DNA from: Candidatus Sungiibacteriota bacterium
Lineage (GTDB): Bacteria > Patescibacteriota > Minisyncoccia > Sungbacterales > HO2-52-23
Direction: 5' to 3'
Assembly: GCA_016180435.1 (NCBI GenBank)
Contig: JACPBG010000002.1
Coordinates: 60,342 to 124,341 of the forward strand
Length of the DNA stretch: 64,000 nucleotides
Position 1 is the stretch's first letter; the number at the start of each line of letters is the position of its first letter. Under the pieces are notes generated by a model. The model made no database searches. It worked only from the letters and a program-made list of their open reading frames with translations, and was not told where the DNA came from. A program made the position numbers and the translations under genes. This document shows, one piece after another, positions 10,737 through 47,273 of the stretch.

Positions 10737-10952
10737 ATGAAAAAAGAAAAAAATTATAAGGAGGGTATAGTCAATGAAAATTTACCGAACACGTTTTTTA
10801 AAGTTACGCTGGATGACGGCCGGGAAATTTTGGCCCACCTATCAGGAAAAATGCGCCTGAATTATATTAAAGTTCTTCCCGGGGACCGGGTGCGGATGGA
10901 AATGACGCCCTATGATGAGACTAAGGGGAGGATAGTACATCGCTTGAAATAA
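10737..10952 (+). CDS. infA: translation initiation factor IF-1
   Basis: [63 protein letters not shown]. Confidence 0.9.
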
Positions 10953-10957
10953 TTTCA

Positions 10958-11071
10958 ATTTCAGACACGACTCAACCGCTCCGGCGGCGGTCTCGCTAAG
11001 GGTCGGACAAATTTTCGTCCCGATTGCGATCGGGATGATCCAAGCAAATTTGTCCTCCCATTGTCTGAAAT
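10958..11071 (+). repeat. repeat family A copy 1: ~115-nt structured element with terminal TTTCAGACACG...CATTGTCTGAAA and conserved CTAAGGGTCGG core
   Basis: Near-identical to 14068..14181; 23851..23956 is a diverged copy with compensatory changes; degenerate copies near 30228, 30975 and 34295. Confidence 0.7.
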
Positions 11072-11106
11072 TTAAATTATTTCCTCGCTTATTTTTTAAA
11101 AAATGT

Positions 11107-11223
11107 ATGAAGGTACAAGCTTCCGTAAAACCAAGATGCGCCAAGTGTAAGACGGTCCGACGGAAAGGTCGGCTGTTTGTTATATGCCGCGTAAATAAGA
11201 AGCATAAGCAGAGGCAGGGATAA
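11107..11223 (+). CDS. rpmJ: 50S ribosomal protein L36
   Basis: [38 protein letters not shown]. Confidence 0.85.
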
Positions 11224-11243
11224 GGCTCTTACGAGCCAGCATC

Positions 11244-11307
11244 AAGAACTAAGATTTTAGAACTTAGCAAATTTTCTAAGTTCTAAGTTCTGGGTTCTAA
11301 GTTCTAT
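11244..11307. repeat. TAGAAC-family palindromic element, intergenic copy between rpmJ and rpsM
   Basis: atcaagaactaagattttagaacttagc...ttctaagttctaagttctgggttctaagttctat. Confidence 0.7.
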
Positions 11308-11309
11308 TT

Positions 11310-11696
11310 GTGAGAATTGTAGGTATTAACATTCCGGATAATAAAAAAATAGAATTTGCCCTCCCGTATATTTACGGGGTTGGTTTGCCGGCTGCGCGTA
11401 AAATTCTGCGCTCGTCCCAGGTTGATCCGCAAAAAACCGCAAAAGATCTGACTCCGCCGGAGATAAACCGCATTCGCGAGATTATTGAGCGAAATTATAA
11501 AATCGAGGGTGACTTGCGCCGCGATATCATGTTAAATATCAAGCGCTTGAAGGAGATTCAAACTTATCGCGGGGCGCGCCATATCCGCGGGCTCCCGGTA
11601 AGAGGCCAGCGAACCAAAACAAATTCCAGGACGCGCCGCGGCAATGTGCGTAAAACCATGGGATCGGGAAGAAAACCAGCAGCAAGCCCCACTTAA
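11310..11696 (+). CDS. rpsM: 30S ribosomal protein S13 (GTG start)
   Basis: MRIVGINIPDNKKIEFALPYIYGVGL...YRGARHIRGLPVRGQRTKTNSRTRRG. Confidence 0.9.
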   Translation: MRIVGINIPDNKKIEFALPYIYGVGLPAARKILRSSQVDPQKTAKDLTPPEINRIREIIERNYKIEGDLRRDIMLNIKRLKEIQTYRGARHIRGLPVRGQRTKTNSRTRRGNVRKTMGSGRKPAASPT

Positions 11697-11699
11697 AAT

Positions 11700-11786
11700 A
11701 AAGCACTTAGAACTTAGAACCTAGAACTTAGTAAATCTGCTAAGATCTAAGTTCTTGAATGCTAAGTTCTATGTTGCGAAGCAACA
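11700..11786. repeat. TAGAAC-family palindromic element plus mini-hairpin ATGTTGCGAAGCAACAT abutting the rpsK start
   Basis: aaagcacttagaacttagaacctagaacttag...ctaagatctaagttcttgaatgctaagttctatgttgcgaagcaacat; begins right after the rpsM stop. Confidence 0.7.
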
Positions 11787-12230
11787 TTGGGTAAAAAGCG
11801 TATCATAACTAAATCTACCGAGTCATCCGAATCGAAAAAATCCGATAGCCAGCCGCCAGCCGGAATTTCGGTAACGCGGCGTGGCATACTGCGCGGTTGC
11901 GCTTATATTCAGGCAACTTATAATAACACCATTATTACCATAACCGACGAAAAGGGCGGCGTGATAGCGTGGTCTTCGGCCGGGTCCGTTGGATTTTCGG
12001 GAACCAAGAAAGCCACTCCGTTTGCAGCAGCGCGAGTCGCGGAATTCCTTGCTGAAAAAATGCGTAAAGCCGGTATTCAGGAGCTTATGGTTTTTGTAAA
12101 AGGGGTTGGATCAGGGCGTGATTCGGCGATTCGTGCGCTTGCCAATCAGGGGTTTGCCATTTCGCGCATCAAAGATATTACCCCCATCCCGCATAACGGG
12201 CCGAGACCCAGGAAACCAAGAAGAGTATAA
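11787..12230 (+). CDS. rpsK: 30S ribosomal protein S11 (TTG start)
   Basis: [50 protein letters not shown]... Confidence 0.9.
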
Positions 12231-12323
12231 AGCACTTAGAACTTAGAACCTAGAACTTAGAATTTATAATTAAAGTATTTACTAAGTTCTAAATACTAAG
12301 ATCTAAGTTCTTTTGCGAAGCAA
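12231..12323. repeat. TAGAAC-family palindromic element plus mini-hairpin TTTTGCGAAGCAAA immediately 5' of the rpsD ATG
   Basis: agcacttagaacttagaacctagaacttagaattt...actaagttctaaatactaagatctaagttcttttgcgaagcaaATG. Confidence 0.7.
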
Positions 12324-12944
12324 ATGCCAAAGGTATTAGAAAAAGTAGAAAGGCGTCTTGGCGAAAAACTCTTTTTAAAAGGGGATCGTTGCGCTGGGCC
12401 GAAGTGCGCGGCAGTTCGCCATCCGAGTCCTCCGGGGATTCACGGCAAAACCCGCCGTCGCGCTCCTTCGGAATTCGGACAATATCTGCAGGGAAAACAA
12501 AAGGTTCGTTTTCTGTACGGTCTTGACGATCGTGATTTAAATCGGTATGCTAAGAAAGCCGAATCAATGCGCGGCGCATTTGCCGCGAAATTTTTGCAAT
12601 TACTTGAGCGGCGTCTTGATAACGTGGTGTTTCGTTTGGGATTTACCGGGTCGCGCCGGTCAGCGCGCCAAGCCGTATCACACGGCCATATTAGGGTGAA
12701 TGGCCGGCGTGTCAGTGTGCCGTCGTATCAGGTTAAAATCGGTGAAGTTGTTTCCATAAATCCCGGCGCCCGGCAAAGTTCTCATTTTGCCGATTTGGAA
12801 CATCGCTTGAAAAAGTATACTCCGCCCGTTTGGCTCGCTTTGGAAAAGGATCAAGTTGCGGGCAAGGTTGTCGGGTCCGCCGAATCAGATATGTCCGGAA
12901 CGTCCGGCGAACTTATAAAAATAAAAGAGTTTTATTCGAGATAA
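12324..12944 (+). CDS. rpsD: 30S ribosomal protein S4
   Basis: MPKVLEKVERRLGEKLFLKGDRCAGPKCA...VVFRLGFTGSRRSARQAVSHGHIRVNGRRVSVPSYQVK. Confidence 0.9.
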   Translation: MPKVLEKVERRLGEKLFLKGDRCAGPKCAAVRHPSPPGIHGKTRRRAPSEFGQYLQGKQKVRFLYGLDDRDLNRYAKKAESMRGAFAAKFLQLLERRLDNVVFRLGFTGSRRSARQAVSHGHIRVNGRRVSVPSYQVKIGEVVSINPGARQSSHFADLEHRLKKYTPPVWLALEKDQVAGKVVGSAESDMSGTSGELIKIKEFYSR

Positions 12945-12950
12945 ACACTA

Positions 12951-13074
12951 GACAGTGATGCCAATCCGATGCGAATTTAATGCCAATTTGGCGAATTGCG
13001 AATGAATTTAAAGATTAGCAATTTGTAGATTAGCATTTTATTTGTAGATTTGCATCATTGCGTGCGAAGCATAT
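12951..13074 (+). repeat. repeat family B copy 1: conserved ~120-bp leader upstream of rpoA
   Basis: gtgatgccaatccgatgcgaatttaatgccaa...ggcgaattgcgaat...agcaatttgtagattagcat...tttgtagatttgcatcattgcgtgcgaagca; second copy at 29548..29671 ends the same way before the frr ATG. Confidence 0.7.
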
Positions 13075-14043
13075 ATGAGTATTCCACTTCCTTTAGCACC
13101 GAAGGCCGTTAGCGAAGAAGGAAATCGCGCTGTTTTTGATATAGAGGGGCTTTATCCGGGTTACGGCCATACCATCGGCAACAGTATGCGCCGCGTTTTA
13201 TTGTCATCTTTGCGTGGCGCGGCTATAACGTCCGTAAAAATAGAAGGCGTTTCCCACGAATTTTCTACTATAGAAGGAATTATGGAAGATGCGGTGGAGA
13301 TCATTCTAAACTTGAAACAGCTTCGTTTTCGCTTATATCAGGAAGAACCGGTCATGATCTCTCTTTCGGTTAAAGGCGAGCGGGAAGTAATCGGCAAGGA
13401 CTTTAAACTCCCGTCACAGGTGGAATTAATCAATCCGGATTTGCATATAGCGACTATTTCGTCCAAAAAATCCGGTTTGAGCATGGAGGCCACTGTGGAG
13501 GCGGGCATGGGTTACATTCCGGTGGAGGAGCGCACCAAGGAAAAAGTTGAAATAGGCGTGATCGCTTTAGATGCCGCATTTTCTCCGGTTCGCTATGTAA
13601 ATTATGATGTAGAGAATATGCGAGTCGGAGATCGCACCGATTATAATCGTCTGCGCCTTACCGTTGAGACTGATGGCTCGATTACTCCGCGTGAGGCATT
13701 TTTGCAGGCGGCCAGTATATTGGTTGAACAATTTTCCGTTCTAATCAAGGAAATGGAATCAAGTTCGGTAGAAATTGCACCTTCCGAAGAATATGCGCGG
13801 GGCGTATCCGAAGAGGCGGAAAAATCCGCCGGAGGCGAGGAGGATACATCCAAAATGAAGCTGGATGATCTGAAGTTATCCGGGCGCACCTTGAATATTC
13901 TGAAAGAATCCGGTATCAAGACCGTGGGAGGCCTTTCGCGTAAAAAAGAATCGGCGCTTCGGGAACTTGAAGGGATGGGGGATAAAGGGATGCAGGAAAT
14001 AAAGAAAGCGCTTGGAAATTTTGGAATTACTTTGAAGCCGTAA
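13075..14043 (+). CDS. rpoA: DNA-directed RNA polymerase subunit alpha
   Basis: LYPGYGHTIGNSMRRVLLSSLRGAAITSVKIEGVSHEFSTIEGIMEDAVEIILNLKQ; C-terminal domain present. Confidence 0.9.
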   Translation: MSIPLPLAPKAVSEEGNRAVFDIEGLYPGYGHTIGNSMRRVLLSSLRGAAITSVKIEGVSHEFSTIEGIMEDAVEIILNLKQLRFRLYQEEPVMISLSVKGEREVIGKDFKLPSQVELINPDLHIATISSKKSGLSMEATVEAGMGYIPVEERTKEKVEIGVIALDAAFSPVRYVNYDVENMRVGDRTDYNRLRLTVETDGSITPREAFLQAASILVEQFSVLIKEMESSSVEIAPSEEYARGVSEEAEKSAGGEEDTSKMKLDDLKLSGRTLNILKESGIKTVGGLSRKKESALRELEGMGDKGMQEIKKALGNFGITLKP

Positions 14044-14067
14044 TATTATAAATCTTCGGCTAATTTG

Positions 14068-14181
14068 ATTTCAGACACGACTCGGCGGCTCCGGCGGCCG
14101 CCTCGCTAAGGGTCGGACAAATTTTCGTCCCGATTGCGATCGGGACGATCCGAGCAAATTTGTCCTCCCATTGTCTGAAAT
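14068..14181 (+). repeat. repeat family A copy 2, upstream of rplQ
   Basis: tttcagacacgactcggcggctccggcggccgcctcgctaagggtcggacaaattttcgtcccgattgcgatcgggacgatccgagcaaatttgtcctcccattgtctgaaa. Confidence 0.7.
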
Positions 14182-14250
14182 CAAAATAGCCTCGATTTAA
14201 TCCAAGCTAATTACGAATTCTAAAATTTCCAACGCTAACGATGAAAAAAT

Positions 14251-14595
14251 ATGAGGAAGTTGAAAAAAGGGAGAAAATTTGGGAGAGAACGGGATCAAAG
14301 GAGGGCGTTACTTAAAAGTCTCGCCTCCTCATTTTTTATTGCGGGACGAATGAAAACAACGGAAGCCAAAGCCAAAGAACTCCGCCCGTATGTCGAGAAA
14401 TTCATTACCCGAGCCAAGGATCCGACACTCGCAAATCGAAGATTCATGCTGCGTTTTTTTTCGAGCGCAATTGTTGATAAAATTATTAAGCGTGGTGAGG
14501 AAATGCGTGAGAGAGCCGGAGGATATACCAGGGTTATTAAATTGGGACAGAGAAAACGAGATAGCGCGAGGATGGCGATATTGGAATTTGTTTAA
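14251..14595 (+). CDS. rplQ: 50S ribosomal protein L17
   Basis: RKFGRERDQRRALLKSLASSFFIAGRMKTTEAKAKELRPYVEKFITRAK. Confidence 0.9.
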   Translation: MRKLKKGRKFGRERDQRRALLKSLASSFFIAGRMKTTEAKAKELRPYVEKFITRAKDPTLANRRFMLRFFSSAIVDKIIKRGEEMRERAGGYTRVIKLGQRKRDSARMAILEFV

Positions 14596-14667
14596 AGAAC
14601 TTAGAACTTAGAACTTAGAACTTAGATATCTACTAAGTTTTAAATGCTAAGTTCTAAATGCTATGCG
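14596..14667. repeat. TAGAAC-family palindromic element plus mini-hairpin TGCGATGGAGCATCGCA spanning the rplM start
   Basis: aaagaacttagaacttagaacttagaacttagatatctactaagttttaaatgctaagttctaaatgctatgcgatggagcatcgca. Confidence 0.7.
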
Positions 14668-15009
14668 ATGGAGCATCGCATTGATGCAGCTAATCAAATA
14701 CTCGGACGTCTGGCAACTCGCGTTGCGGTTCTTTTGCGCGGTAAAGATCGGCCTGATTTTGATCCGGCGCGTTTTTCCGATAACAAGGTGGCGGTTCATA
14801 ATACCGATAAAATGCGCGTGACCGGAAAGAAGATGCCGCAAAAAAAATATCGGCGGCATTCCGGTTACCCCGGCGGCTTGAAAGAAGAAGCGCTTGAGCG
14901 CCTTTTCGCACGCGACTCGCGTGAGGTTTTGCGCCGCGCGGTTTTAGGGATGCTCCCGAAAAATCGCCTGCGCAGTAGATGGATAAAGAATCTGATACTA
15001 CGTAAATAA
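14668..15009 (+). CDS. rplM: 50S ribosomal protein L13
   Basis: HRIDAANQILGRLATRVAVLLRGKDRPDFDPARFSDNKVAVHNTDKMRVTGKKMPQKKYRRHSGYPGGLKEE. Start taken at ATG 14668 inside the hairpin; the ORF track starts at 14644. Confidence 0.85.
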   Translation: MEHRIDAANQILGRLATRVAVLLRGKDRPDFDPARFSDNKVAVHNTDKMRVTGKKMPQKKYRRHSGYPGGLKEEALERLFARDSREVLRRAVLGMLPKNRLRSRWIKNLILRK

Positions 15010-15026
15010 CAAATGGTAAATGGCAG

Positions 15027-15061
15027 ACAACTAACAACTAACAACTAACAACTAACAACTT
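15027..15061. repeat. tandem heptamer (ACAACTA/CAACTAA) x ~4.5 directly upstream of rpsI
   Basis: acaactaacaactaacaactaacaactaacaact. Confidence 0.8.
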
Positions 15062-15066
15062 AGGGT

Positions 15067-15666
15067 ATGCCAAAGGCAATTAAGAAAAAAATAGAAAGTA
15101 AGCCCGTGGAAAAAGAAGCGGAAACGCCGAAAAAGAAAGTTGAAGAAAAAGAAAATAAGATTAAAACCGCGGTGAAAGTAAAAAAACCTTCTAAACAGGG
15201 GGCAGAAGTTCCGGCACAAGAAATCTCGTCAGGATTCTCGGAACATAAAACGGATAAAGCAGAAAAGCCCAAAAAACCGGAGCGTTATTTTGAGGCGGTG
15301 GGCAGAAGAAAAACCGCAGTGGCTCGCGTGCGGTTATTTACCCGGCCCGGGGACTTTACGGTAAATGGCAGGTTATACAGTTTATATTTTCCGACTTTAA
15401 CGCTCCAGCAAATTATTGAGGATTCGTTGAAGAAAATGAAGCTTTTGGGAAGATTCAGGGTGTCAATTAAGGTCTCCGGCGGAGGAACTCATGCCCAAGC
15501 CGAGGCCATTCGCCACGGACTCGCGCGCTGTTTGGTTAAATTCAATCCGGATTTTCGCAAGCGTTTGCGACGTGCCGGATACATTACACGCGACCCACGC
15601 GCCAAAGAAAGGAAGAAATTCGGCTTGAAAAAGGCGCGTAAAGCTCCGCAGTGGGCGAAGCGGTAA
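15067..15666 (+). CDS. rpsI: 30S ribosomal protein S9 with ~75-aa Lys/Glu-rich N-terminal extension
   Basis: C-terminal YFEAVGRRKTAVARVRLF...GGGTHAQAEAIRHGLARCL...RDPRAKERKKFGLKKARKAPQWAKR is canonical S9; N-terminus MPKAIKKKIESKPVEKEAETPKKKVEEKENK... is low-complexity. Confidence 0.85.
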   Translation: MPKAIKKKIESKPVEKEAETPKKKVEEKENKIKTAVKVKKPSKQGAEVPAQEISSGFSEHKTDKAEKPKKPERYFEAVGRRKTAVARVRLFTRPGDFTVNGRLYSLYFPTLTLQQIIEDSLKKMKLLGRFRVSIKVSGGGTHAQAEAIRHGLARCLVKFNPDFRKRLRRAGYITRDPRAKERKKFGLKKARKAPQWAKR

Positions 15667-15810
15667 TTGCGCTCCCCAGACACGCTGTCTGCATCAATGT
15701 TTATGAGGATTTTTGAAAAACACGGGTTCACGACAAAAGTATGAGAAGCGCACAAATAGCACCGCATACGCGGCGTCTTCAGGGATTTGAAAATAACTGA
15801 ATTTGAACAA

Positions 15811-15836
15811 TAGCCGCGATGACCGCGGCTATTGTG
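15811..15836 (+). terminator. hairpin, candidate terminator or boundary of the r-protein transcription unit
   Basis: aatagccgcgatgaccgcggctattg. Confidence 0.4.
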
Positions 15837-15897
15837 TTATTATTACTTCTATGTTACTATTATTTCGGTTCATTTTCATAAATTATGGAGGAAGCAA

Positions 15898-16932
15898 ATG
15901 AGTGATAGGAAAGCACCGTATGACACCAATGAAGGAATTCAGCGTGCCGTCAAAACGTTGCATAAACTTAACGAGTTGGTGGCGAATCGCCATAGGGCTG
16001 GGTATGAAAGACATGAACGACTCAAGGAATTCTATGTCCTTGGACGGTGGCGTACTGACTCTTGTGGCAATTTTGGAAAGATCATCTCTGAGTTTATCCC
16101 GAAATTAAAGTTCCCCCAGATCCCCGACGTTTTAACCAACGAAGAGTTTTGGGCATTCTTGGGGGCGCAAGGGCTTGATGTTGAGAAAACCTTTGTTTCA
16201 AGCGGAATGTCGAACGACCTACCGCCTGATGACATCGTATGTTGTGTTTGCCAGCAGTCGTGGACTATTGAAAATTGCCATGACGTAGTTATCACCCATC
16301 AGCATCAGGATTTTTCATTGTCAGAGTTCGTTGGGAGACAGCTTTGGGAGGTACAACGGGTATACGGTATGCGAATTGATGCTTGCTACCGTATGCAGCC
16401 AGACATTCTTATTCGTAACGATCGATTCATTGATCTACGTCCGGAGCCAGAATTTGAAACGCTCAAAAGGAATGAGCATGGATGGGTGGGCAAAGAAGAT
16501 GGAGTTACGGAAAACTATGTGATTCAGTCAGGTGATGATGGGTTTTTCAACGTCTGGCATTTTCATCATCATGCGTGTAGTCGGAAAAAGCTCGAAGCTG
16601 ATATGCGGCAGCAATTCCGTGATGTACTCACAAAAGCGGGTTTTGCTAACACAATCCTCAAGTCAATTCCGAATCAGTATTGCCCATGTGAGCATTGTGC
16701 TCCGTGGTTCGTGGTACGGACTGAACATGGTACATTTACGATCGGATGGCGAAAGCGCGTCATCAATATCGATTGGAAGGCGACTGGTAAGAACTTTCTG
16801 CCGCTTTTCGACGATCAGGACGTTACGAAAGACAACCACTTGATTCATGCATGGGGTTACGAAAAAGCTACTGAATATTTTACGAGGATTAAGGGGTTTC
16901 TCATTCAGTCCGAGGCGTTAACTCAACGTTAA
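15898..16932 (+). CDS. Cys/His-rich hypothetical protein, putative metal-binding, unknown function
   Basis: ORF 15832..16932; start taken at ATG 15898 behind GGAGGAAGC. Contains CCVCQQSW, HQHQD, WHFHHHACSRKK and CPCEHCAPW. Codon usage unlike neighbouring core genes. Confidence 0.5.
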   Translation: MSDRKAPYDTNEGIQRAVKTLHKLNELVANRHRAGYERHERLKEFYVLGRWRTDSCGNFGKIISEFIPKLKFPQIPDVLTNEEFWAFLGAQGLDVEKTFVSSGMSNDLPPDDIVCCVCQQSWTIENCHDVVITHQHQDFSLSEFVGRQLWEVQRVYGMRIDACYRMQPDILIRNDRFIDLRPEPEFETLKRNEHGWVGKEDGVTENYVIQSGDDGFFNVWHFHHHACSRKKLEADMRQQFRDVLTKAGFANTILKSIPNQYCPCEHCAPWFVVRTEHGTFTIGWRKRVINIDWKATGKNFLPLFDDQDVTKDNHLIHAWGYEKATEYFTRIKGFLIQSEALTQR

Positions 16933-16938
16933 ACAAGA

Positions 16939-16967
16939 CTGCCTGGCTCTGCCAGCAGTTTTTATTT
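16939..16967 (+). terminator. rho-independent terminator after the Cys/His-rich gene
   Basis: ctgcctggctctgccagcag followed by tttttatttt. Confidence 0.7.
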
Positions 16968-17136
16968 TCAAAAACCTAAAGTCCACCACGCCTCAAAGCA
17001 TTGCAGTGGGCGAAGAGATAGACTAGCTTTCGTATGTTGACCCCAAAGACCGAACTAAAAAGTTTGGTCTTTTGGGTGAGGGGTAGGCGGGGAAGACCGA
17101 AATATTCTTGAGTCTTGGGTGGGGAAAAGCCCCTAC

Positions 17137-17193
17137 TTGACAAATTACCGGGATTCCCGGTAAGATTAATTTAATATCTAATTCCCGGTATTT
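17137..17193 (+). promoter_or_regulatory. candidate promoter with operator-like palindrome upstream of the GHKL ATPase gene
   Basis: TTGACA (17137-17142); palindrome ACCGGGATTCCCGGT in the spacer; half-site ATTCCCGGTA repeated at 17181-17190 just before ATG 17194. Confidence 0.45.
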
Positions 17194-18156
17194 ATGAAAA
17201 TATATCTTCCCCATAGTGCATTTTTAGGGAATATTGATCCATTCCTGGCGGCCTTTGACCCTAGCCATAAGGAAAAGCTCGAAATTACCGCTAATAAAAA
17301 TTGGATTTTTGTTCACCCCGTTGTATTAGCAATGGTAGCGGCGTTAGGTTTAACAGTTTATCGAAAAAATATTAAATGTGAAAAGATAGTGGCACGTTCG
17401 GGTCACTACCTTGAAAGGATGGGTTTATTCAAATTTCTTGATATTAAATCAGGGATGAAGATAACCGAACACGATCCATCGGGGCGATTCGTTCCACTAA
17501 CACAGATAAAAACCTCTGAACAACTCACAAAGTTTCTAACCGAAATGATTCCACTGCTTCATTTAGAACCTCGACATGCCGAACCAATCAAATATATTAT
17601 TAGTGAATTGGTGAGAAACGTGTTAGAGCACGCTCGTGCACCACAAGGAGCTATCGTATCTGCTCAATATCATGCAAAAAATAAAACAATTCGCATAGGA
17701 ATAGTTGATCGTGGTAGTGGTATAAAAAGCACAATTAATCAATCATGGGATGCAAGTAATGATCTTGAGGCTATTAAGTTGGCACTTATGCCGGGAGTTA
17801 CAGGAACTACAAAAAGAGAAGGCGGAACAGAACAAAATGCTGGAGCAGGTTTATTTTTTATTAAATCAATTGCTTATGTGAATCGTAATTTTTTTATGAT
17901 CTATAGCGGAAACGCAATGTATAAACTTCTGAAAAGAAGTGGCGCTAAAAAAATTATGCTTCATGCTAACCCCAATCTTGACAGACACTCAGAAAGAAAT
18001 AACTTACCTTATTGGGATGGTACGGCGGTGGGTGTAGATATTTCTTTAGATACTACACAAGAATTTACTGCACTTCTTGATCTTATAAGAGATACTTACT
18101 CGGAGGCAGTTAAAGAGCGTAAGCGTAATAGATATAAAAGGGCTAAATTTATTTAA
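17194..18156 (+). CDS. GHKL-superfamily (histidine-kinase-like / RsbW-like) ATP-binding protein with ~110-aa N-terminal domain of unknown function
   Basis: N-box ELVRNVLEHA, G1 IGIVDRGSGI, G2 GAGLFFIKS. Low GC (~37%) versus ~48% in flanks. Confidence 0.6.
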   Translation: MKIYLPHSAFLGNIDPFLAAFDPSHKEKLEITANKNWIFVHPVVLAMVAALGLTVYRKNIKCEKIVARSGHYLERMGLFKFLDIKSGMKITEHDPSGRFVPLTQIKTSEQLTKFLTEMIPLLHLEPRHAEPIKYIISELVRNVLEHARAPQGAIVSAQYHAKNKTIRIGIVDRGSGIKSTINQSWDASNDLEAIKLALMPGVTGTTKREGGTEQNAGAGLFFIKSIAYVNRNFFMIYSGNAMYKLLKRSGAKKIMLHANPNLDRHSERNNLPYWDGTAVGVDISLDTTQEFTALLDLIRDTYSEAVKERKRNRYKRAKFI

Positions 18157-18161
18157 ATATT

Positions 18162-18449
18162 ATGGTTACTATCGAACTTTTTCCCTTAGTGGGGGGCTTT
18201 GCGGAAAACAAGGATATTGCAAGAGACATAAGACGAGACCAAATTCTTCCAGCTCTGAAGAATGGAGAAAGTGTTGTCTTGGATTTTAGTGGCATAGAAT
18301 CTACAACACAATCTTTCGTTCACTCCTTAATTAGTGATGTAATGAGGGAATACGGGAGTGACGTTATGGATAAATTAGTATTTAAAAATTGCAGTGAAAC
18401 CATACAAAAAATCATCAGTATAGTTGTGGACTATATGCAGCAAACATAA
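18162..18449 (+). CDS. small STAS-like (anti-sigma-antagonist-like, DUF4325-like) protein, probable partner of the upstream ATPase
   Basis: 95 aa starting 6 bp after the ATPase gene; VVLDFSGIESTTQSFVHSLI resembles STAS-like folds. Assignment is from memory of the family and is tentative. Confidence 0.4.
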   Translation: MVTIELFPLVGGFAENKDIARDIRRDQILPALKNGESVVLDFSGIESTTQSFVHSLISDVMREYGSDVMDKLVFKNCSETIQKIISIVVDYMQQT

Positions 18450-18590
18450 TTTGTCTCAGTTAAAGACGTATTACGGTTCGCCCTGCGGAATTTTTTATAC
18501 GGACTTTTTATTTTCTCGCGTAAATTTTATTTGAAAAAACGCGAAAATAAAATGTCATCCGAAAGGATGACGTTTCTATATAGATACGCC

Positions 18591-19148
18591 CTAATGATAT
18601 GGAGAAAATGTCGCCTCTTTTAATCGCCAGTGTAATTTTATTCCCGCTTGATCTTCCGCAAAAATATCTTTCACGAAGTTGTCGAAACGAGCCGAGAATG
18701 GATACTTTTGCAAAGTAAGGTCGGCCAGAAGATGCAGCTTGTCTATCGGAAAGCGCTTCAGGCAAAATACATATGCCTCGGCAATGTCTGATCTTGAGCA
18801 TCCCTCGTCCCTTTCCCGCGGCCAGATACGATGCAGTACTGAAATCATCTTCAGTTTAAATTCGGAGTTTCCGAACCGCAAAAGAAAAAGAAGGAGCTGG
18901 CGGATTGTTCCTGCAAAAAAGATTTCCCAGCTCCTGCTTTTTCGTGCGGCTGAACCTTGTTTATAAAGACCCAATTTCCACCATAGTTCGGCGGGTCTGC
19001 TGTCCGGCATTTTCAGCACTTTCCATTGATATAACATCCAGTCAAGAACGCCGGGAACTGCAACCTCTTTTTGATAGCAGATTTTTTCTAAATCATGAAG
19101 CGCCAGTGGATACTTCTTTTTAAAAGTAGCACTTGTATGCCAAGGCAT
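18591..19148 (-). CDS. hypothetical protein, possibly an all-helical (heme-oxygenase/TenA-like) fold
   Basis: 185-aa ORF; RBS AGGAGA upstream of its ATG on the - strand. Confidence 0.4.
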   Translation of the reverse strand: MPWHTSATFKKKYPLALHDLEKICYQKEVAVPGVLDWMLYQWKVLKMPDSRPAELWWKLGLYKQGSAARKSRSWEIFFAGTIRQLLLFLLRFGNSEFKLKMISVLHRIWPRERDEGCSRSDIAEAYVFCLKRFPIDKLHLLADLTLQKYPFSARFDNFVKDIFAEDQAGIKLHWRLKEATFSPYH

Positions 19149-19274
19149 TTATTTATCTCCTATAGCTGGTATGAGCTTCACACAAGATAACAAAAAAACG
19201 TTATTTTGTCAATCTTGCAAAATAGTACAGATTATGCTATTTTAGTTTTAGTTCATTTTTCGCGTAGGTGCAAT

Positions 19275-19514
19275 ATGTCTAGTTGGCTGGATACGGAAAA
19301 AGGTCAAGAATTTTTCAAAAAAGCCTTTGAGGTTGCCGATTTGCCGGAGGTTGATGGAGATGTCTTGGAGCAAGGCACATACACCAACCGTCAAATCGCC
19401 GAAAAAGCCGGAAGCCCAGAAAAATTGCTGTCATTGCTTATGAATGTATCCGGTGATCGGGCGACGAAAAGATCGATCCTTAGTTTCGCCGTGGAAATGG
19501 ATTTAGAAGATTAA
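19275..19514 (+). CDS. hypothetical small protein
   Basis: ORF 19206..19514; start taken at ATG 19275 (MSSWLDTEKGQEFF...). Confidence 0.3.
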   Translation: MSSWLDTEKGQEFFKKAFEVADLPEVDGDVLEQGTYTNRQIAEKAGSPEKLLSLLMNVSGDRATKRSILSFAVEMDLED

Positions 19515-19554
19515 GTTTAGTAAGTTTTACCGCATGGTTTGCCCTGCGGCTTTT

Positions 19555-21375
19555 TTATTTAATAAACCGTTCCGCCTGCAGGGACCAAAGGCGTTTATAA
19601 ATTCCGCCGCGTGCGATTAAATCCAAATGTGTTCCTTCTTCCGCTATTTTTCCGCGGTCTATTACTATAATTCGATCCATCTGCATGATGGTGGAAAGGC
19701 GATGGGCAATTACGATCGCGGTTTTTTTCTTAAGCAAATTTTTTAAGGCATCCTGAATCAGCGCCTCTACTTCCGAGTCCAAACTTGAGGTTGCTTCGTC
19801 TAAAACCAAAATCGGCGTGTTGGCGAGGATGGCCCGCGCAATTGCTACTCTTTGCCGTTCTCCGCCGGAAAGTTTTACTCCGCGTTCTCCCACGTATGTG
19901 TCATAGCCATAAGGAAGCCGTGAAATAAATTCATGGCAGTGCGCTTTTTGGGCCGCATCCATGATCTCTTTTTCGGTCGCATTCAGGCGTCCGTAGCGTA
20001 TATTTTCGGTAAGGGTGCGGTGGAATAAAATGGTATCTTGCGGCACCAGCGCAACGGATGTGCGTATGCTGTCTTGCGTTACTTCGGCAATGTTTTGCCC
20101 GTCAATCATTATTTTTCCATTATTTATATCATGGAAACGCAAAAGAAGCGTTACCACCGTGGTTTTTCCGGCGCCGGATGATCCGACCAGCGCAATTTTT
20201 TCTCCGGGCTTGACGCGTAAACTGAAATTTTCAAGCACTTTGCGCTTATCATGAAATCCGAAAGTAACATTTTCAAATTCAACCATACCCCGGGAAACCG
20301 CAAGTTTTTTTGCGGAAGGCGCATCTTTTATATCCGGAGGTGTATTTAAAATTTCCACCATTTCAGCCGCATCGGCAAGCGACTCATAAACTCGGCGCAC
20401 CACCCGGCCAAAGTCCCAGATTCTGTGAAATAGCACGATCAAATACCCTTGAATCAGGGCAAAATCTCCGACGGTAACCTGGCCGCTTGACCAGAGCCGG
20501 ATCCAGGCATAAAACAAACCCACTTCAATTGCGATCATGAGAAGCGCTTGAATCCCGTCAGCTGCTTCTCCGATGCCCCATCCCCAAAAACGCAGGCGTT
20601 TTAATTCATTCATGACGTTACGGTAAATAGTTTTTTCATGATCATAATTGGAAAATAGTTTTATGGTAATGACGTTAGTCAGGGCGTCGGAAAGCGTTCC
20701 GGTTGCTTCCGAGTCCTTTTCGGCCCGGGCCCGGTCATATTTTAATTTCCAGCCCGCGATAAAATAATAGATGACTCCAAAGAGCAAAATCCAGATTGCC
20801 AAAGCAATTCCGAGGACGATGTGGCGTTTGAAAAGAACAATAAGTATCCCGGTAACTATGACAAAAAGCGGAATGATGCTGAATAAAATCTGATCGGTTA
20901 TCTCCTCAAACGAACGGGACAGGCGCGCCACCTTTCTTACCAGCGATCCGGTGAAATTGTTTGTAAAGAAGCGGTGCGAGTGCCCGAGTAGATTTGAGAA
21001 AGCGGTCAGGGACAGGTCATTCATCACGTTGGCCCGCATATATATATTTGCTATGCCGAACAGACGATGTATGGTCCAGCGCGATATTTCCAAAGCCGCG
21101 ATAATGCCGAGGATCCACATGAGTTGGCGGTTGATTTCTGCCGCTTGAAGCGCCGTATTCGTAACCGTGTCAAGAAACATTTTTAAGAACCAGGGCATGG
21201 TTACCGCAATAATCTGCATCGCGATTGCGGACAAGAAGACCACAATCGATGTCCCGGGATATTTTCGGGCGTGTTCCCAAAATACCCGCCATATCAGGCG
21301 AAGTGTATGGCGGTTTAATTCCGGCTTTTTTATTTTGGCGGATGCCAATTGCGTCATAACTCGATTTTTTTCCAT
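19555..21375 (-). CDS. ABC transporter, fused permease/ATP-binding protein (MsbA-like exporter)
   Basis: Six predicted TM helices; Walker A GSSGAGKTT; signature LSGGERQRVAIARAIL; Walker B ILVLDEATSSLD. Confidence 0.9.
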   Translation of the reverse strand: MEKNRVMTQLASAKIKKPELNRHTLRLIWRVFWEHARKYPGTSIVVFLSAIAMQIIAVTMPWFLKMFLDTVTNTALQAAEINRQLMWILGIIAALEISRWTIHRLFGIANIYMRANVMNDLSLTAFSNLLGHSHRFFTNNFTGSLVRKVARLSRSFEEITDQILFSIIPLFVIVTGILIVLFKRHIVLGIALAIWILLFGVIYYFIAGWKLKYDRARAEKDSEATGTLSDALTNVITIKLFSNYDHEKTIYRNVMNELKRLRFWGWGIGEAADGIQALLMIAIEVGLFYAWIRLWSSGQVTVGDFALIQGYLIVLFHRIWDFGRVVRRVYESLADAAEMVEILNTPPDIKDAPSAKKLAVSRGMVEFENVTFGFHDKRKVLENFSLRVKPGEKIALVGSSGAGKTTVVTLLLRFHDINNGKIMIDGQNIAEVTQDSIRTSVALVPQDTILFHRTLTENIRYGRLNATEKEIMDAAQKAHCHEFISRLPYGYDTYVGERGVKLSGGERQRVAIARAILANTPILVLDEATSSLDSEVEALIQDALKNLLKKKTAIVIAHRLSTIMQMDRIIVIDRGKIAEEGTHLDLIARGGIYKRLWSLQAERFIK

Positions 21376-22460
21376 AATTTGTTTCTTCTTAAATATATGG
21401 ACCTTGGATAATCGGCGGCAGTCACCAGTTCATCAATTCTTTCACTGATCAGCTCGCCGGTATTTCTTCCTCCGCGTCCGTCAATCTCGGTAAAATATAC
21501 TCCGTCTTTGGTGAGCATGACAATATGAGCGTCGTCGTAATAATACCAGCGCGCATCCAGAATCGGTTCCTGCAGGGTTATAATCTGTTCTATTAGGCCC
21601 TTTTTTTGAAACGGCTGGTATTCATTATCCTGCAGCCATAATATTTCTATACTGTTTTCTTTTTTTAAGATAAGTTTTTCTCCTTCCGTATCAAATGAAA
21701 TTGCTTTAGCGCCTCCGGCCAGGGGTTTCAATTCATTGGTTTCACTTTCTATTATAAAAAGTCCTCCGCCGGCATCCAAAATCGCCAATTCGCTGCGCGG
21801 CGATATGAAAAATTGCGCCGGTATTTTGTCAGAAAGGAAAAATCCCGGTCGGCCCAGCGTTTCAATCATCCCGTTACTATTTAATTTTGCCGCAAAACCG
21901 GCTTCGGTAATAAAAAATATAGCGCCGTCGATATAGGCAAATGAATTCACTCCGGGTGTCAGCACGGTTGTCGTGGCGCGGCCGTTTAGCACGCGGTCTT
22001 CAACCAGATTGTTTTTTTTATCAAGCCGAATTTTACGCGCGGAAGTGGTAGTCGCCAATCCCAAAGATATGATTTCGTCGCGTGTTGCCGTGGCGGTCAT
22101 GACCGGTGAGGGGATCAGGATGACATTTCGTATTTCGGTTACGGCGGCTTTTTCCACGGTTACGGTTTTTGACCAAGGCCGGTAATTTTCCTTTTCCAGA
22201 CGTAGCAGATGTATGCCGGGCCTGATTTCGGTCAATAGCGCCCCGCCGGAAAAAATTGATGTCTCTTTCTGAAATTCGTTGTCCAGAAAAATTGAGATGC
22301 TTGCGATCGTGGATTTTATAAAAATACCGCCGCGCTGCTCCAGCGAGCGTGATGATAAATTGATCGTATAGCCGAGCGAATGAGCAATTACTATCGGCAA
22401 AAGCACGATAAATGCGGCCAGCAGGAGATAAAAAATTTTTTTTCTGGTTGCCAGCTTCAT
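21354..22460 (-). CDS. membrane-anchored hypothetical protein
   Basis: N-terminal TM helix FYLLLAAFIVLLPIVIAHSL; no catalytic motif recognised. Confidence 0.45.
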   Translation of the reverse strand: MKLATRKKIFYLLLAAFIVLLPIVIAHSLGYTINLSSRSLEQRGGIFIKSTIASISIFLDNEFQKETSIFSGGALLTEIRPGIHLLRLEKENYRPWSKTVTVEKAAVTEIRNVILIPSPVMTATATRDEIISLGLATTTSARKIRLDKKNNLVEDRVLNGRATTTVLTPGVNSFAYIDGAIFFITEAGFAAKLNSNGMIETLGRPGFFLSDKIPAQFFISPRSELAILDAGGGLFIIESETNELKPLAGGAKAISFDTEGEKLILKKENSIEILWLQDNEYQPFQKKGLIEQIITLQEPILDARWYYYDDAHIVMLTKDGVYFTEIDGRGGRNTGELISERIDELVTAADYPRSIYLRRNKLWKKIEL

Positions 22461-22517
22461 ACTTATATTGTAGCAATTTTGCGGGCGTTTGAAAATAACG
22501 CCTTTTCACGCTACGAT

Positions 22518-23831
22518 ATGTTTATGTCTGTAGATAAATTTATTATTAAGGGCGGTAAGCCGTTGGCGGGTGAGATTGAGGTACGCGGATCCAAAAATGC
22601 CGCGACCAAATTGATGATTGCCTCACTTCTTACGGATGAGCCCTGTGTTATTGAAAATGTCCCGCTGTCGCAGGATACGGATATTACTTCAGAACTTTGC
22701 GGGAAAATCGGAAGCAATGTGGAGCTTGATCGTGATTTACATGCGATTAAAATCCATACGCCGAAGGTCTTGCATCCGGTTGTGCCGGAATTATCGCGGA
22801 AAAATCGCATACCCGTACTGGCTATCGGGCCGCTTTTGCATCGTACGGGCATTGCGGAAGTACCGGTGCTGGGCGGGTGCCCGATCGGGCACCGTCCCAT
22901 AAATTTTCACGTCGAGGCATTGTCTAAAATGGGGGTAGAGGTTGAGCGCCGGCCGCAATCATATTTTGCCAAGACCTCGGAGATCCATGGAGCTGAAATA
23001 GACCTTCCGTTCCCGTCTGTCGGCGCTACCGAAAATATAATCTTATTTGCGGTACTTGCCCGCGGGAAAACATTGATCCGGAATGCGGCCGTGGAGCCGG
23101 AAATTTTCAATCTGGTTGAGATGCTTCGCGGGATGGGAGCTGAAATTCTTTGGAGATCTGACGAGAGGATCATAGAAATAGAGGGAGTAAGCCGGCTCCG
23201 CGGAGTTTCGATAGAAACAATTCCGGATAGGAATGAGGCGGTATCATTTGCCGTGGCCGCCCTGGCAACCGGCGGAGAGGTTTTTGTGCGCGGGGCGCGC
23301 GAGGATCATCTGAAATCATTTATTGCTAAAGCGGTTGATGCGGGGGGATCGGTCTTTGTGCAGGATGGCGGCATTAAGTTTAAAGCCGGTAAGCGGTATG
23401 GGCCGGTTAAAATTGAAACCTCGCCACACCCGGGATTTATGACTGATTGGCAGCAGCCGTTTTGCGTTCTCTTGACGAAGGCGGACGGAGAATCAATAAT
23501 ACATGAGACGGTTTATGAGGATAGATTTGGTTATGTAAAGGATTTGACCCGCATGGGGGCGCGGATTGAGGTATCGGATAAATGTTGGGGTGATATGAAA
23601 TGCCGGTTTGCGGGCGTCTCCGCCATGCATAGTATCAGTATTAACGGGCCATCCCGTCTTCATGGGACAGATATTACCATGATTGATATCCGCGCCGGCA
23701 TGGCGCATATCATTGCCGCGCTTTCCGCTGAAGGAGAGTCGGTTATTACGGGGATTGAACACATTGATAGGGGATATGAGAAGATTGAGGAGAGGTTAAG
23801 AAAATTAGGGGCGGAAATTAGGAGGGTGTGA
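22518..23831 (+). CDS. murA: UDP-N-acetylglucosamine 1-carboxyvinyltransferase
   Basis: DKFIIKGGKPLAGEIEVRGSKNAATKLMIASLLTDEPCVIENVP. Start taken at ATG 22518; the ORF track start at 22380 is upstream. Confidence 0.9.
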   Translation: MFMSVDKFIIKGGKPLAGEIEVRGSKNAATKLMIASLLTDEPCVIENVPLSQDTDITSELCGKIGSNVELDRDLHAIKIHTPKVLHPVVPELSRKNRIPVLAIGPLLHRTGIAEVPVLGGCPIGHRPINFHVEALSKMGVEVERRPQSYFAKTSEIHGAEIDLPFPSVGATENIILFAVLARGKTLIRNAAVEPEIFNLVEMLRGMGAEILWRSDERIIEIEGVSRLRGVSIETIPDRNEAVSFAVAALATGGEVFVRGAREDHLKSFIAKAVDAGGSVFVQDGGIKFKAGKRYGPVKIETSPHPGFMTDWQQPFCVLLTKADGESIIHETVYEDRFGYVKDLTRMGARIEVSDKCWGDMKCRFAGVSAMHSISINGPSRLHGTDITMIDIRAGMAHIIAALSAEGESVITGIEHIDRGYEKIEERLRKLGAEIRRV

Positions 23832-23850
23832 TTATCGCTCGGCATTTCGT

Positions 23851-23956
23851 TTTCAAGACACGCAAATTTTTGCCAGCGCAAAAATTTGCTAAGGGTCGGC
23901 GAAGTTTTCCGCCAAAGGCGGAACCATGCAAACTTCGCCTCCCATTGTCTTGAAAA
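23851..23956 (+). repeat. repeat family A copy 3 (diverged, compensatory substitutions keep all stems)
   Basis: ttcaagacacgcaaatttttgccagcgcaaaaatttgctaagggtcggcgaagttttccgccaaaggcggaaccatgcaaacttcgcctcccattgtcttgaa. Confidence 0.65.
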
Positions 23957-24014
23957 CAAAATGCTTCGCATAATTTCAATCTTTTGGTGAGAGGAGAGGA
24001 AAAGGAGCAATTTT

Positions 24015-25812: not shown

Positions 25813-25909
25813 CCCCATGTCGCTAACATTAAATTGAATACTTGGAGAAAAGAATGGTTTGCTGAAGACAGCCGTCTTCGGTGGGTAGTATTAAAATATT
25901 TTAAATTTT

Positions 25910-29543: not shown

Positions 29544-29547
29544 AAGC

Positions 29548-29671
29548 AGTGATGCCAATCCTATGCGAATTTAATGCCAAGCTGGCGAATTGCGAATAAT
29601 TATTAGCATAATTAGCAATTTGTAGATTAGCATAAGATTTGTAGATTTGCATCATTGCGGTGCGAAGCACA
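29548..29671 (+). repeat. repeat family B copy 2, leader upstream of frr
   Basis: agtgatgccaatcctatgcgaatttaatgccaagctggcgaattgcgaat...tttgtagatttgcatcattgcggtgcgaagcacaATG. Confidence 0.7.
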
Positions 29672-30227: not shown

Positions 30228-30400
30228 ATATTTCAATTTTCAAACACGATTTGCTCGGAAACTACTTTTAAAAAACTTCGCGCCGACCCACCGTGTCGGC
30301 GCTCATCACGGGTCGGCCTCACTCGTTTCGCTTCGCTCAACACCGTGGCCGTTCGGCCTCCCAGTGTTTTTAAAAGCAGTTTTCCTCGCCTGCTGTATTG
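30228..30400. repeat. degenerate family-A-like structured element
   Basis: tttcaaacacg...cgggtcggcc...ggcctcccagtgtttttaaaag parallels the A-family termini and core. Confidence 0.35.
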
Positions 30401-30431: not shown

Positions 30432-30463
30432 GGGTTTGCTGAATGTAGCCGCCTGCGGCTTGT
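30432..30463 (+). repeat. conserved motif GGGTTTGCTGAATGTAGCCGC plus hairpin, copy 1 of 3
   Basis: gggtttgctgaatgtagccgcctgcggcttgtttgt; preceded by GGGAGG; copies at 31251 and 34452. Confidence 0.55.
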
Positions 30464-30974: not shown

Positions 30975-31090
30975 TATTTTTTGTGTCGAATCAGATTCGG
31001 CACATTTCATTTTAAAACACGTTCGGTTCGTTCAGCGACGAACCTCACTAAGCATCCGGCGATTCGCCGAGCACTCAATTTATCCCAAAA
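30975..31090. repeat. degenerate family-A-like element
   Basis: ttttaaaacacgttcgg...ctcactaagcatccggcg... resembles tttcagacacg...ctcgctaagggtcggcg. Confidence 0.25.
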
Positions 31091-31250
31091 TAGTTCCCGA
31101 GCCAGTCGAGGGACTACCTTTAGGGAAGTAAGTGTTGTAACAATAGGTTGAGTGTTCGGACCATGCCGAATCGCTTTCTGATTGTTTTAAAATCATATTG
31201 CCTCAGACCGCATCGCTCGCTTAAAATTTTTACTCAATGAAGAAAAAAGG

Positions 31251-31283
31251 GGGTTTGCTGAATGTAGCCGCCTGCTTGTCTAT
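31251..31283 (+). repeat. GGGTTTGCTGAATGTAGCCGC motif, copy 2
   Basis: gggggtttgctgaatgtagccgcctgcttgtc. Confidence 0.5.
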
Positions 31284-34166: not shown

Positions 34167-34294
34167 TGGGAAAAATTGTATTTTGCTCGGCAACATTATT
34201 TTGAAACATTTTTATTCGCCCTGCAGCCATAAATTTTCCAGAACTCCTATTCGGACAAAAATAATCGCTTCATACCCCGCATTTTTTAACGGGC

Positions 34295-34345
34295 TTCGGC
34301 CGCTCCGGCGGCGGCCTGCAGGGTCGGCGACTCGCTCATGCGTAA
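34295..34345. repeat. partial family-A element (5' half)
   Basis: cggccgctccggcggcggcctgcagggtcggcga versus ccgctccggcggcggtctcgctaagggtcggaca. Confidence 0.4.
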
Positions 34346-34451
34346 TCATACCGAACCTACGTTAATGGAAAATTTCCGGCAAACAGGGCTCGCTTTATTT
34401 GATTTTTAGAATCAAATTGTCTCGTTGTAATTTTTCCTCATTGTGGAGTAG

Positions 34452-34491
34452 GGAGTTTGCTGAATGTAGCCGCGTTGCGCGGCTTTTTTAT
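34452..34491 (+). terminator. GGGTTTGCTGAATGTAGCCGC motif, copy 3, forming a terminator
   Basis: gggagtttgctgaatgtagccgcgttgcgcggcttttttatt. Confidence 0.55.
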
Positions 34492-38617: not shown

Positions 38618-38822
38618 GTTGTTTTCATCGCGGCGTGTCATTCAGGTCCTGGAGCGCCAGGGCTTTGTTTTTATTTCTCAACGGGGAAGTCACGCCAAAT
38701 ATCGCAAAACCGGTCCGCATACATTTACCGCGATTGTCCCTGTTGGGAAAAAGGAGATTCCACACGGAACTTTTCGTTCTATTGTACGCCAATCAGGATT
38801 ACAGGAGGAGAATTTTGAATAA
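38610..38822 (+). CDS. hicA: HicA-family toxin (YcfA-like)
   Basis: VLERQGFVFISQRGSHAKYRK...VPVGKKEIPHGTFRSIVRQSGL; overlaps hicB by 8 bp. Confidence 0.65.
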   Translation: MPKLFSSRRVIQVLERQGFVFISQRGSHAKYRKTGPHTFTAIVPVGKKEIPHGTFRSIVRQSGLQEENFE

Positions 38823-47247: not shown

Positions 47248-47273
47248 CGAATTTTTAACTTGATAATTTCGAT

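Follow-up and report, generated by a model that had tools for sequence, protein, structure and literature searches.

A 64,000-nt stretch of a Candidatus Sungiibacteriota genome (contig JACPBG010000002.1, positions 60,342 to 124,341; hereafter, the window) contains three copies of a repeat that we call family A. We found that family A is an undescribed multi-copy intergenic repeat family of Parcubacteria, folding into a three-armed hairpin held by paired mutations. The structure and its compensatory covariation are real and selected. The explanation that we prefer, with a probability of about 50%, is that family A is a new family of non-autonomous, structure-dependent mobile repeats, non-coding and REPIN-like in kind.

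A preliminary description of this DNA had noted an element at three sites, and all three copies lie where it placed them. A covariance model (R1) built from 35 homologous copies recovered them with scores of 122, 128, and 113 bits for copies 1, 2, and 3, respectively:

10946 to 11091, + strand: copy 1, in the infA/rpmJ spacer; core model match at 10948-11080, 121.6 bits.
14044 to 14195, + strand: copy 2, in the rpoA/rplQ spacer; 128 bits.
23832 to 23973, + strand: copy 3, in the murA/mreB spacer; 113 bits.

Copies 1 and 2, described as nearly identical, shared 93% identity across 120 nt. Copy 3 had been described as diverged; all of its helices differ, pairing is kept in each, and every stem change quoted for it was correct. 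Compared with dinucleotide shuffles, fold stability gave z-scores of −6.3, −6.3, and −8.8 for copies 1, 2, and 3, and none of 200 shuffles was as stable. The proposed ends were correct in location but not in extent, as the closing stem continues well outside them, producing rods at 10946-11083, 14054-14195, and 23832-23973. Likewise, the helices listed were real, but the list lacked two features: hairpin P2, which is a fourth helix and has the loop C-CNGC-G, and the conserved bulge ACCAAGC of 7 nt.

In copy 1, the 5' arm of the rod starts within the final codons and stop of infA. Its invariant runs, GCTAAGGGTCGG and CCTCCCATTGTCT, lie at 10995-11006 and 11054-11066, and the 3' terminal motif CTCGCTTA occupies 11084-11091. 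In copy 2, the block conserved with relatives begins at 14044, directly after the rpoA stop, and includes CTTCGG (14054-14059), a stem formed by 14060-14077 with 14172-14189, and CCTCGA (14190-14195), with core motifs at 14105-14116 and 14164-14176. Copy 3 has outer pairs TTAT/ATAA, an internal loop CGCTCG/TTCGC, a stem formed by 23842-23860 with 23946-23964, and core motifs at 23888-23899 and 23938-23950; its P2 is paired throughout and lacks the CUCG loop. The outermost 10 bp of copy 1 (10946-10955 with 11074-11083) consist of the last codons and stop of infA (TTGAAATAA) paired with their exact complement on the far side of the element. This infA end is also conserved in relatives without the element. 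The arrangement suggests that the outer stem of copy 1 was either taken from the flank or created by an insertion that rebuilt the infA end.

The core, approximately 125 nt long, is a three-way junction closed by a long stem of variable sequence (P1). Read 5' to 3' on the strand used in the preliminary description (hereafter, the top strand), it comprises the closing stem with invariant inner pairs ACA/UGU; CG(A); hairpin P2 with loop C-CNGC-G; (G/A)CUAA; P3 (GGG/CCC); an internal loop UC/U; P4 (GG plus eight variable pairs); hairpin P5; the conserved bulge (A)ACCAAGC; AU; and the return into the closing stem. Approximately 45 junction, loop, and bulge bases are invariant. The invariant runs had been taken to be single-stranded, which is true only of CUAA, UC/U, and AU; in P3 and at the base of P4, GGG..GG is paired to CC.CCC, and the inner part of P1 pairs ACA with UGU. 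The idea that CCUCCC might interact with Shine-Dalgarno sequences found no support; CCUCCC is paired within P3 in every copy.

Compensatory changes were detected by RNAalifold in 35 of 43 pairs of the 35-copy alignment. In a 52-copy alignment, 92.6% of cells were paired, versus 34-48% when the partners were slid, and 41 of the 43 modelled pairs showed double compensatory changes. The covariation score was 0.76, compared with 0.18 in shuffles, and no shuffle among 500 reached the observed value. The random variation that would have spoken against the structure was thus not seen. A separate MAFFT alignment analysed by mutual information recovered exactly these helices and added one pair, C-G alternating with U-A, beside CUCG/CUCG, a 2x2 internal loop that is conserved at the P2 base. 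The same scan revealed no pseudoknot or tertiary covariation. A small open reading frame within the element was ruled out because the helices change by compensation regardless of reading frame.

Folded with their flanks, the copies form rods of approximately 140-250 nt with energies of about −60 to −120 kcal/mol. Further CUCG-type loops break up these rods, many of which have GCTCG(G/C) at the 5' boundary and (G)CTCGCTTA at the 3' boundary. When 90-nt flanks were included, the minimum-energy fold over-extended into unrelated flank, and the element ends cannot be defined in this way. Across the 114 copies, sequence is conserved in the internal junction and not in the outer stem, and the terminal stems covary freely (helix 1 shows double changes in 11 of 11 pairs). 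Some P5 loops, read directly from the sequences, are C(UUCG)G tetraloops.

We searched for further copies at several levels. An exact-pattern scan for the two invariant runs in species-representative genomes returned 35 loci, all in Patescibacteria and mostly in Parcubacteria, with at least 14 of the 35 in a single genome, GW2011_GWA2_45_30. The same kind of scan returned 113 stretches from groundwater metagenomes and no copy from viral contigs. Applied to all fetched loci (labelled L with a number below), model R1 gave 52 plus 108 hits, corresponding to 114 distinct sequences from Parcubacteria/Patescibacteria genomes and groundwater metagenomes. The element had been proposed to be novel, and a scan of the whole window with Rfam 15 at gathering thresholds indeed produced no match. 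Around copies 1 and 3, Rfam at E <= 10 yielded only chance-level scores (<=19 bits, versus family thresholds of 35-85). BLAST against phage and plasmid collections found no match to the element, and in the literature on candidate-phyla-radiation repeats, structured RNAs, and the invariant motifs, only a coincidental hepatitis delta virus (HDV) ribozyme substrate matched.

Family A copies are intergenic. Between tandem genes, 39 were sense and 8 antisense; convergent gene pairs held 12 copies, and divergent pairs held 0-1. The model hit begins a median of 18 nt past the upstream stop codon and ends 40 nt short of the next start. The upstream genes are approximately 50 different, unrelated housekeeping genes. 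For the window copies and a divergent relative listed below, they are infA, rpoA, murA, and frr, with rpmJ, rplQ, and mreB as downstream genes; elsewhere they include frr, murA, rpoA, rpoC, mreB, rplC, rplN, dnaK, recA, nrd, sufB, and pilB. Recurrence after the same gene in different genomes was observed three times for frr and twice each for rpoA, murA, rpoC, mreB, and rplC. In contig 9 of Parcubacteria GW2011_GWA2_45_30 (L002, 3340-6678), an operon of pilM, a pilO-like gene, and pilB carries a copy in every spacer within 3.3 kb; three of these are antisense (two of them at 117-121 bits) and one is sense.

The preliminary description had envisaged an element dedicated to positions upstream of rpmJ, rplQ, and mreB. 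This view did not hold, since the element is dispersed among approximately 50 host genes in both orientations and the same spacers are empty in close relatives. A ribosomal-protein operon leader or other gene-specific cis-regulator was ruled out, as relatives with 84% RpoA identity lack the element in the corresponding spacers. An intrinsic terminator was also ruled out: no terminator was called at the three copies, and T-runs, where present, lie 8-20 nt past the rod. A separate terminator-like hairpin was found within 130 nt after 19 of 100 copies, versus 4-5 of 100 controls, and in many cases a TTyTTAATGTA box stands before it at a constant 32-33 nt. We also observed a box (T)TTG/CTT/GAATGTA with a variable GC-rich hairpin, often with a T-run, at window positions 25855-25879, 30432-30456, 31251-31275, and 34453-34477, and in L007, L008, L016, L017, L075, and others. 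This box and hairpin stand at a fixed 32-33 nt past many family A copies and 57-58 nt past two relatives in the window; they could belong to a longer form of the element, as its 3' module, or be a neighbour that it prefers.

A promoter consensus scan detected no promoter at the copies, and inspection of the flanks revealed no conserved promoter upstream on either strand; by hand, no sigma-70-compatible spacing was found in the CTCGCTTA...TTAATGTA flank. Local GC skew tracked the coding strand (r = 0.77), and replication bias and transcription bias are therefore not separable by skew.

By its RpoA, the window belongs to a Candidatus Sungbacteria genome. The occupancy of individual spacers differed between the window and its relatives. 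At rpoA-rplQ, the window, L039, L040, and L041 carry a copy, whereas L036-L038 have an empty spacer of 66 nt. At infA-rpmJ, only the window has a copy, and the spacer is empty in L036-L038. The rpsK-rpsD spacer is filled in L036 and L037, measures 18 nt in L038, and contains other palindromes in the window and L041. The element distribution conflicts with the rpoA phylogeny. In L041, rpoA DNA is only 74.7% identical to that of the window (49% at third codon positions), yet the copy is 98% identical over the available 60 nt. In L040, rpoA is 85.7% identical and the copy 98% identical over 153 nt, the high identity beginning exactly at the stop codon. In L039, rpoA is 78.6% identical, and every helix of the copy differs.

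Near-identical copies also occur in unrelated flanks within genomes (L019 and L025), and mosaic pairs were found: L007 and L008 have P1 and P2 in common but not P4 and P5, and window copies 1 and 2 have P3-P5 in common but not P2 and the outer stem. Near-identical copies in unrelated flanks, together with these mosaics, point to copying of the element and to gene conversion among its copies. Many copies are flanked by direct GCTCG/CTCGC motifs, but these are constant in sequence, absent in L036, and also present inside the element around P2.

Covariation had been taken to imply RNA structure rather than a merely mobile repeat. Selection on structure is well supported, but the conclusion about RNA does not follow, as REPINs, which are mobile DNA, also show compensatory changes along the hairpin (PMC3116915), and family A lacks G·U enrichment. 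Among the 114 copies, Watson-Crick pairs made up 91.4% of cells, G·U 1.4%, and A·C 2.8%, and in the outer stem A·C outnumbered G·U by 78 to 23. The tRNA stems of the same loci contained 5.9% G·U. This pairing signature is unlike that of typical RNA read from the top strand. The A·C excess was alike in copies sense and antisense to neighbouring genes and is therefore a property of the element, not of host transcription. An A·C pair on the top strand is G·U on the complement, where G·U accordingly reached 2.8%. Similarly, the CUCG/CUCG loop is a tandem U·C mismatch on the top strand and a tandem G·A in a pyrimidine-G-A-purine context only on the complement. Tandem G·A in this context is a favourable, stable motif. 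The complementary strand also folded more stably in 99 of 114 copies, part of the gap coming from the invariant core. Judging by the wobble balance and by the CUCG loop read as tandem G·A, it is probably the complement of the top strand that folds, most simply as single-stranded DNA.

We propose that family A spreads, and is homogenized, as a folded single strand. A putative trans-acting protein would read the approximately 45 invariant junction, loop, and bulge bases, and the helices would need only to pair, so that double changes, strictly Watson-Crick, could let their sequences drift. This protein may read both the loop CCNGC and the bulge CCAAGC, which are alike; their resemblance hints at a dimeric reader. 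New copies would land in, or replace, spacers at gene 3' ends, that is, past stop codons, ahead of terminators, and inside operons. Because copies lie at gene 3' ends and mostly in sense, they would be co-transcribed, and the mRNA would then carry a very stable rod of −50 to −120 kcal/mol, probably acting as a barrier to 3' exonucleases or as a processing site, as with REP and ERIC. Such an effect on mRNA, or harm from antisense copies, would explain the sense bias of 4-5:1.

Family A belongs in kind to the known prokaryotic structured intergenic repeats (REP/REPIN, ERIC, Correia), with a different architecture and host range; there is a substantial chance that the underlying mechanism is new. 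REP repeats stabilize upstream mRNA when transcribed, and REPIN/REP-BIME elements are mobilized by RAYT (TnpA-REP) transposases, which are Y1 HUH enzymes whose genes are often flanked by the repeats. Family A resembles these elements in being short, non-coding, multi-copy, extragenic, and non-autonomous, and in its enrichment at gene 3' ends and between convergent genes. Both are also predicted to form long, imperfect hairpins as mRNA or single-stranded DNA, and in both the hairpin shows compensatory changes (PMC3116915). Unlike REPINs, family A shows no sequence similarity to them and lacks the conserved REP 'GTAG' palindrome at both ends; its ends vary, and its conserved part is an internal, asymmetric three-way junction. 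Its hosts are Patescibacteria, whereas those of REPINs are Proteobacteria. No RAYT gene was found in the 64-kb window or beside 52 copies.

The ERIC/IRU, Correia (NEMIS), RUP, BOX, and bcr1-type repeats, which are MITE-like, have orientation-dependent effects on mRNA stability or processing and show insertion polymorphism between strains. Like family A, they are 100-200 bp intergenic repeats that are co-transcribed and form stable RNA hairpins. However, their terminal inverted repeats are conserved and a target duplication is usually defined, whereas the terminal stem of family A has no conserved sequence, and no similarity between them and family A was found in Rfam or by BLAST.

Three further element types were compared and do not fit. 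A miniature inverted-repeat transposable element (MITE) derived from a DDE transposon would have conserved terminal inverted repeats matching an autonomous insertion sequence; in family A the terminal stems covary freely, and no half-elements flank an open reading frame. Integron attC sites are similar in that structure is conserved above sequence, one folded strand is the substrate, the central structure is variable, and imperfect palindromes lie directly after the stop of the preceding gene with an orientation bias. Family A, however, has no R''/R' core sites (RYYYAAC/GTTRRRY) and no cassette array beside an integrase; its stem bases read ...ACACG/CATTGT... and CTCGG/CCTCGA, and its flanking genes are a syntenic core of ribosomal, pilus, and cell-wall operons. 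Like family A, HDV-like ribozymes commonly occur in multiple copies and in association with mobile elements. Moreover, CUAAGGGUCGG is exactly identical to the antigenomic HDV ribozyme substrate CUAA|GGGUCGG (11 nt), and GCUAAGGG occurs as in its J4/2-P2 segment. The HDV fold was rejected because the P1 partner strand (CCGACCY, the complement of GGGUCGG) is missing; the nested double pseudoknot cannot be drawn, no HDV-family Rfam model matched, and no pseudoknot covariation was seen. We therefore treat the identity to the HDV substrate as a coincidence.

Several observations weigh against a mobile repeat. No transposase, recombinase, or HUH enzyme was linked to the element: neither a transposase, a recombinase, nor a reverse transcriptase was present among the 40 annotated window proteins (those with a family match being all housekeeping), six further L002 proteins, and 52 genes upstream of copies. 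An autonomous version, in the form of half-elements flanking an open reading frame, was not found. At the rpoA-rplQ, infA-rpmJ, and rpsK-rpsD spacers, no base-exact alignment of filled with empty sites could be made, and no precise insertion or excision junction or target duplication could be defined. The termini of family A vary, whereas classical mobile repeats keep conserved terminal repeats. L040 and L041 end inside the element, and part of their 98% identity could be an assembly effect. The same identity, next to an rpoA that is saturated, is also compatible with strong purifying selection on a resident element that has a function, as occurs in tRNA and rRNA. The strong sense bias and the location directly past stop codons fit a function at the RNA level. 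Finally, because the copies are phylogenetically related, significance is overstated both for the counts of A·C against G·U and for the strand energy gap.

Such a function could be that of a host-selected structured RNA module, lying on the top strand in 3' untranslated regions and operon spacers of mRNAs, whose junction binds a host protein or RNase to stabilize, process, or punctuate the transcript; spread by duplication or gene conversion would then be secondary. The orientation bias (39:8 in sense, 12 convergent versus 0-1 divergent), the median distance of 18 nt past the stop, the excess of terminator-like hairpins downstream (19 of 100 copies versus 4-5 of 100 controls), and the recurrence of the same upstream hosts across genomes (frr three times, five others twice) all agree with this, as do the approximately 45 invariant unpaired or junction bases, the near-identical orthologous copy beside a diverged rpoA, and the C(UUCG)G tetraloops in some P5 loops. 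This is the strongest of the alternatives, but we consider it doubtful, since on that strand G·U accounts for just 1.4% and is less common than A·C, and CUCG/CUCG would be a destabilizing tandem U·C mismatch. In addition, antisense copies within an operon are intact (117-121 bits), the wobble asymmetry is unchanged by orientation, and the same spacers in close relatives are empty without an obvious substitute.

The wobble asymmetry would be accommodated if the functional molecule were an RNA of the complementary strand, either a small RNA antisense to most host genes or a self-cleaving ribozyme of a retro- or RNA-mobilized element, with the invariant junction as a catalytic or protein-binding core. 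That strand tolerates G·U, has the tandem G·A, and folds more stably; its three-way junction, invariant junction bases, and freely covarying helices resemble those of small ribozymes and protein-binding RNAs, and the CUAA|GGGUCGG and GCUAAGGG matches to the HDV ribozyme could be cited in its favour. We regard this as improbable, because G·U is still rare there (2.8%), no Rfam ribozyme or HDV model matched even at E <= 10, and the missing CCGACCY partner makes the defining HDV fold impossible. Pseudoknot or tertiary covariation, a conserved promoter upstream on either strand, and a nearby reverse transcriptase (window proteins, L002, and 52 upstream genes) were likewise absent, and bottom-strand terminators follow just 5 of 100 copies. 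Nearly exclusive Watson-Crick pairing is instead what would be expected if both strands, or the duplex, mattered, as in a host site acting at the DNA level without mobility of its own, for example a cruciform or hairpin bound by a protein of the nucleoid, of replication, or of recombination. Copies in either orientation function or persist, and E. coli offers a parallel in its BIME/REP clusters, which bind IHF, gyrase, and Pol I. However, presence/absence differences and near-identical copies in different flanks imply movement or copying, the wobble asymmetry and asymmetric conserved loops favour one folded strand, and a bias by gene orientation would not be expected, making a site of this kind very unlikely.

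More than 40 covarying pairs and approximately 45 invariant bases imply a specific molecular partner. Tentatively, family A may be the substrate of a new structure-specific nucleic-acid enzyme of candidate-phyla-radiation bacteria, in which case it would represent a new mobile class, or an 'operon punctuation' module that has been domesticated, with an asymmetric three-way junction in place of terminal repeats as its defining feature; otherwise, it may be a new class of ribozyme or protein-binding RNA on the complementary strand. In either version, it would rank among those undescribed nucleic-acid structures of bacteria with the strongest covariation and would give access to gene expression or genome dynamics in organisms with reduced genomes. 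Patescibacteria have small, streamlined genomes, and family A fills spacers in their most conserved operons, including those for ribosomal proteins, RNA polymerase, the pilus, and cell-wall synthesis. If it is mobile DNA, it would reveal an unrecognized transposition or gene-conversion system, and it would cause breaks in the assembly of metagenome-assembled genomes of these bacteria. If its action is in mRNA, it would add a widespread post-transcriptional module to a group whose regulation has hardly been studied. For motif searches, it is a caution that abundant compensatory covariation alone does not prove RNA function and that wobble balance and orientation statistics need to be checked.

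Degenerate relatives of family A had been suggested near 30228, 30975, and 34295. The first two are real, and the third is only a weak remnant:

30228 to 30390, + strand: divergent relative downstream of frr; model match at 30257-30383, 39.6 bits, E = 4e-9.
30999 to 31223, + strand: divergent relative; model match at 30999-31201, 46.5 bits.
34272 to 34396, + strand: degenerate remnant; weak model match at 34272-34381, 14 bits, E = 0.16.

The relative at 30228-30390 consists of a truncated 5' half (TTTCAAACACGATTTGCTCGG) followed by a variant element ending in GGCCTCCCAGTGTTTTTAAAAGC. A relative of this 30257-type variant, also ending in GGCCTCCCAGTGTTTTTAAAAGC, was observed between rpmJ and rpsM in L038 (approximately 1700-1790), which has no family A copy at rpoA-rplQ. 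At 30999-31223, the 5' half (P1, ACACG, P2, and CUAAG) is as in family A, the bulge is ACCAUGC, and the P5 arm is approximately 75 nt longer. This relative terminates in GCTCGCTTA at 31215-31223, and occurrences of GCTCGCTTA in the window are concentrated at elements; it is not a general motif of the genome. In the remnant at 34272-34396, a P2-like hairpin (TTCGGCCGCTCCGGCGGCGGCC), AGGGTCGG, and a terminal GCTCGCTTT are left, and the remainder has decayed. The divergent relatives retain the P1/ACACG/P2/CUAAG end and the CCUCCCAKUGU end, and the P3-P5 arm is different or enlarged.

The window also contains other repeats. One is a second family of long AT-rich palindromes built from AGAACTTAG/CTAAGTTCT units, which occupies the rpmJ-rpsM, rpsM-rpsK, rpsK-rpsD, and rplQ-rplM spacers of the ribosomal operon and other sites. 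At the sites of these palindromes, relatives carry family A copies or nothing. The further repeats are listed with them:

116-188, 752-821, 11229-11305, 11693-11756, 12222-12311, 14595-14662, 52458-52534, 54711-54755, and 58768-58804: AT-rich palindrome family.
12953-13062 (just upstream of rpoA) and 29547-29659 (upstream of frr): 110-nt repeat, 94% identical, rich in GCGAAT/ATTCGC and TAGATT.
507-558 and 54570-54621: GC-rich 52-nt repeat GGCCGCCCCGCAGAGCGGGGCGAGCCTCGCCCCAAAGGGGCGGGCGGGATTC, 92% identical, with nested GC hairpins.
47243-47315 (upstream of a glycogen-synthase-like gene) and 63670-63742 (after a PBP2-like gene): intergenic 73-nt repeat, 79% identical.

Material similar to the 110-nt repeat fills the rpsK-rpsD spacer of L041. 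Between 37000 and 43100, tandem paralogous genes without a Pfam match (repeat families D4, D10, D13, and D19; open reading frames at 38635-40593 and 41377-43101) adjoin thioredoxin/DsbA-like genes.

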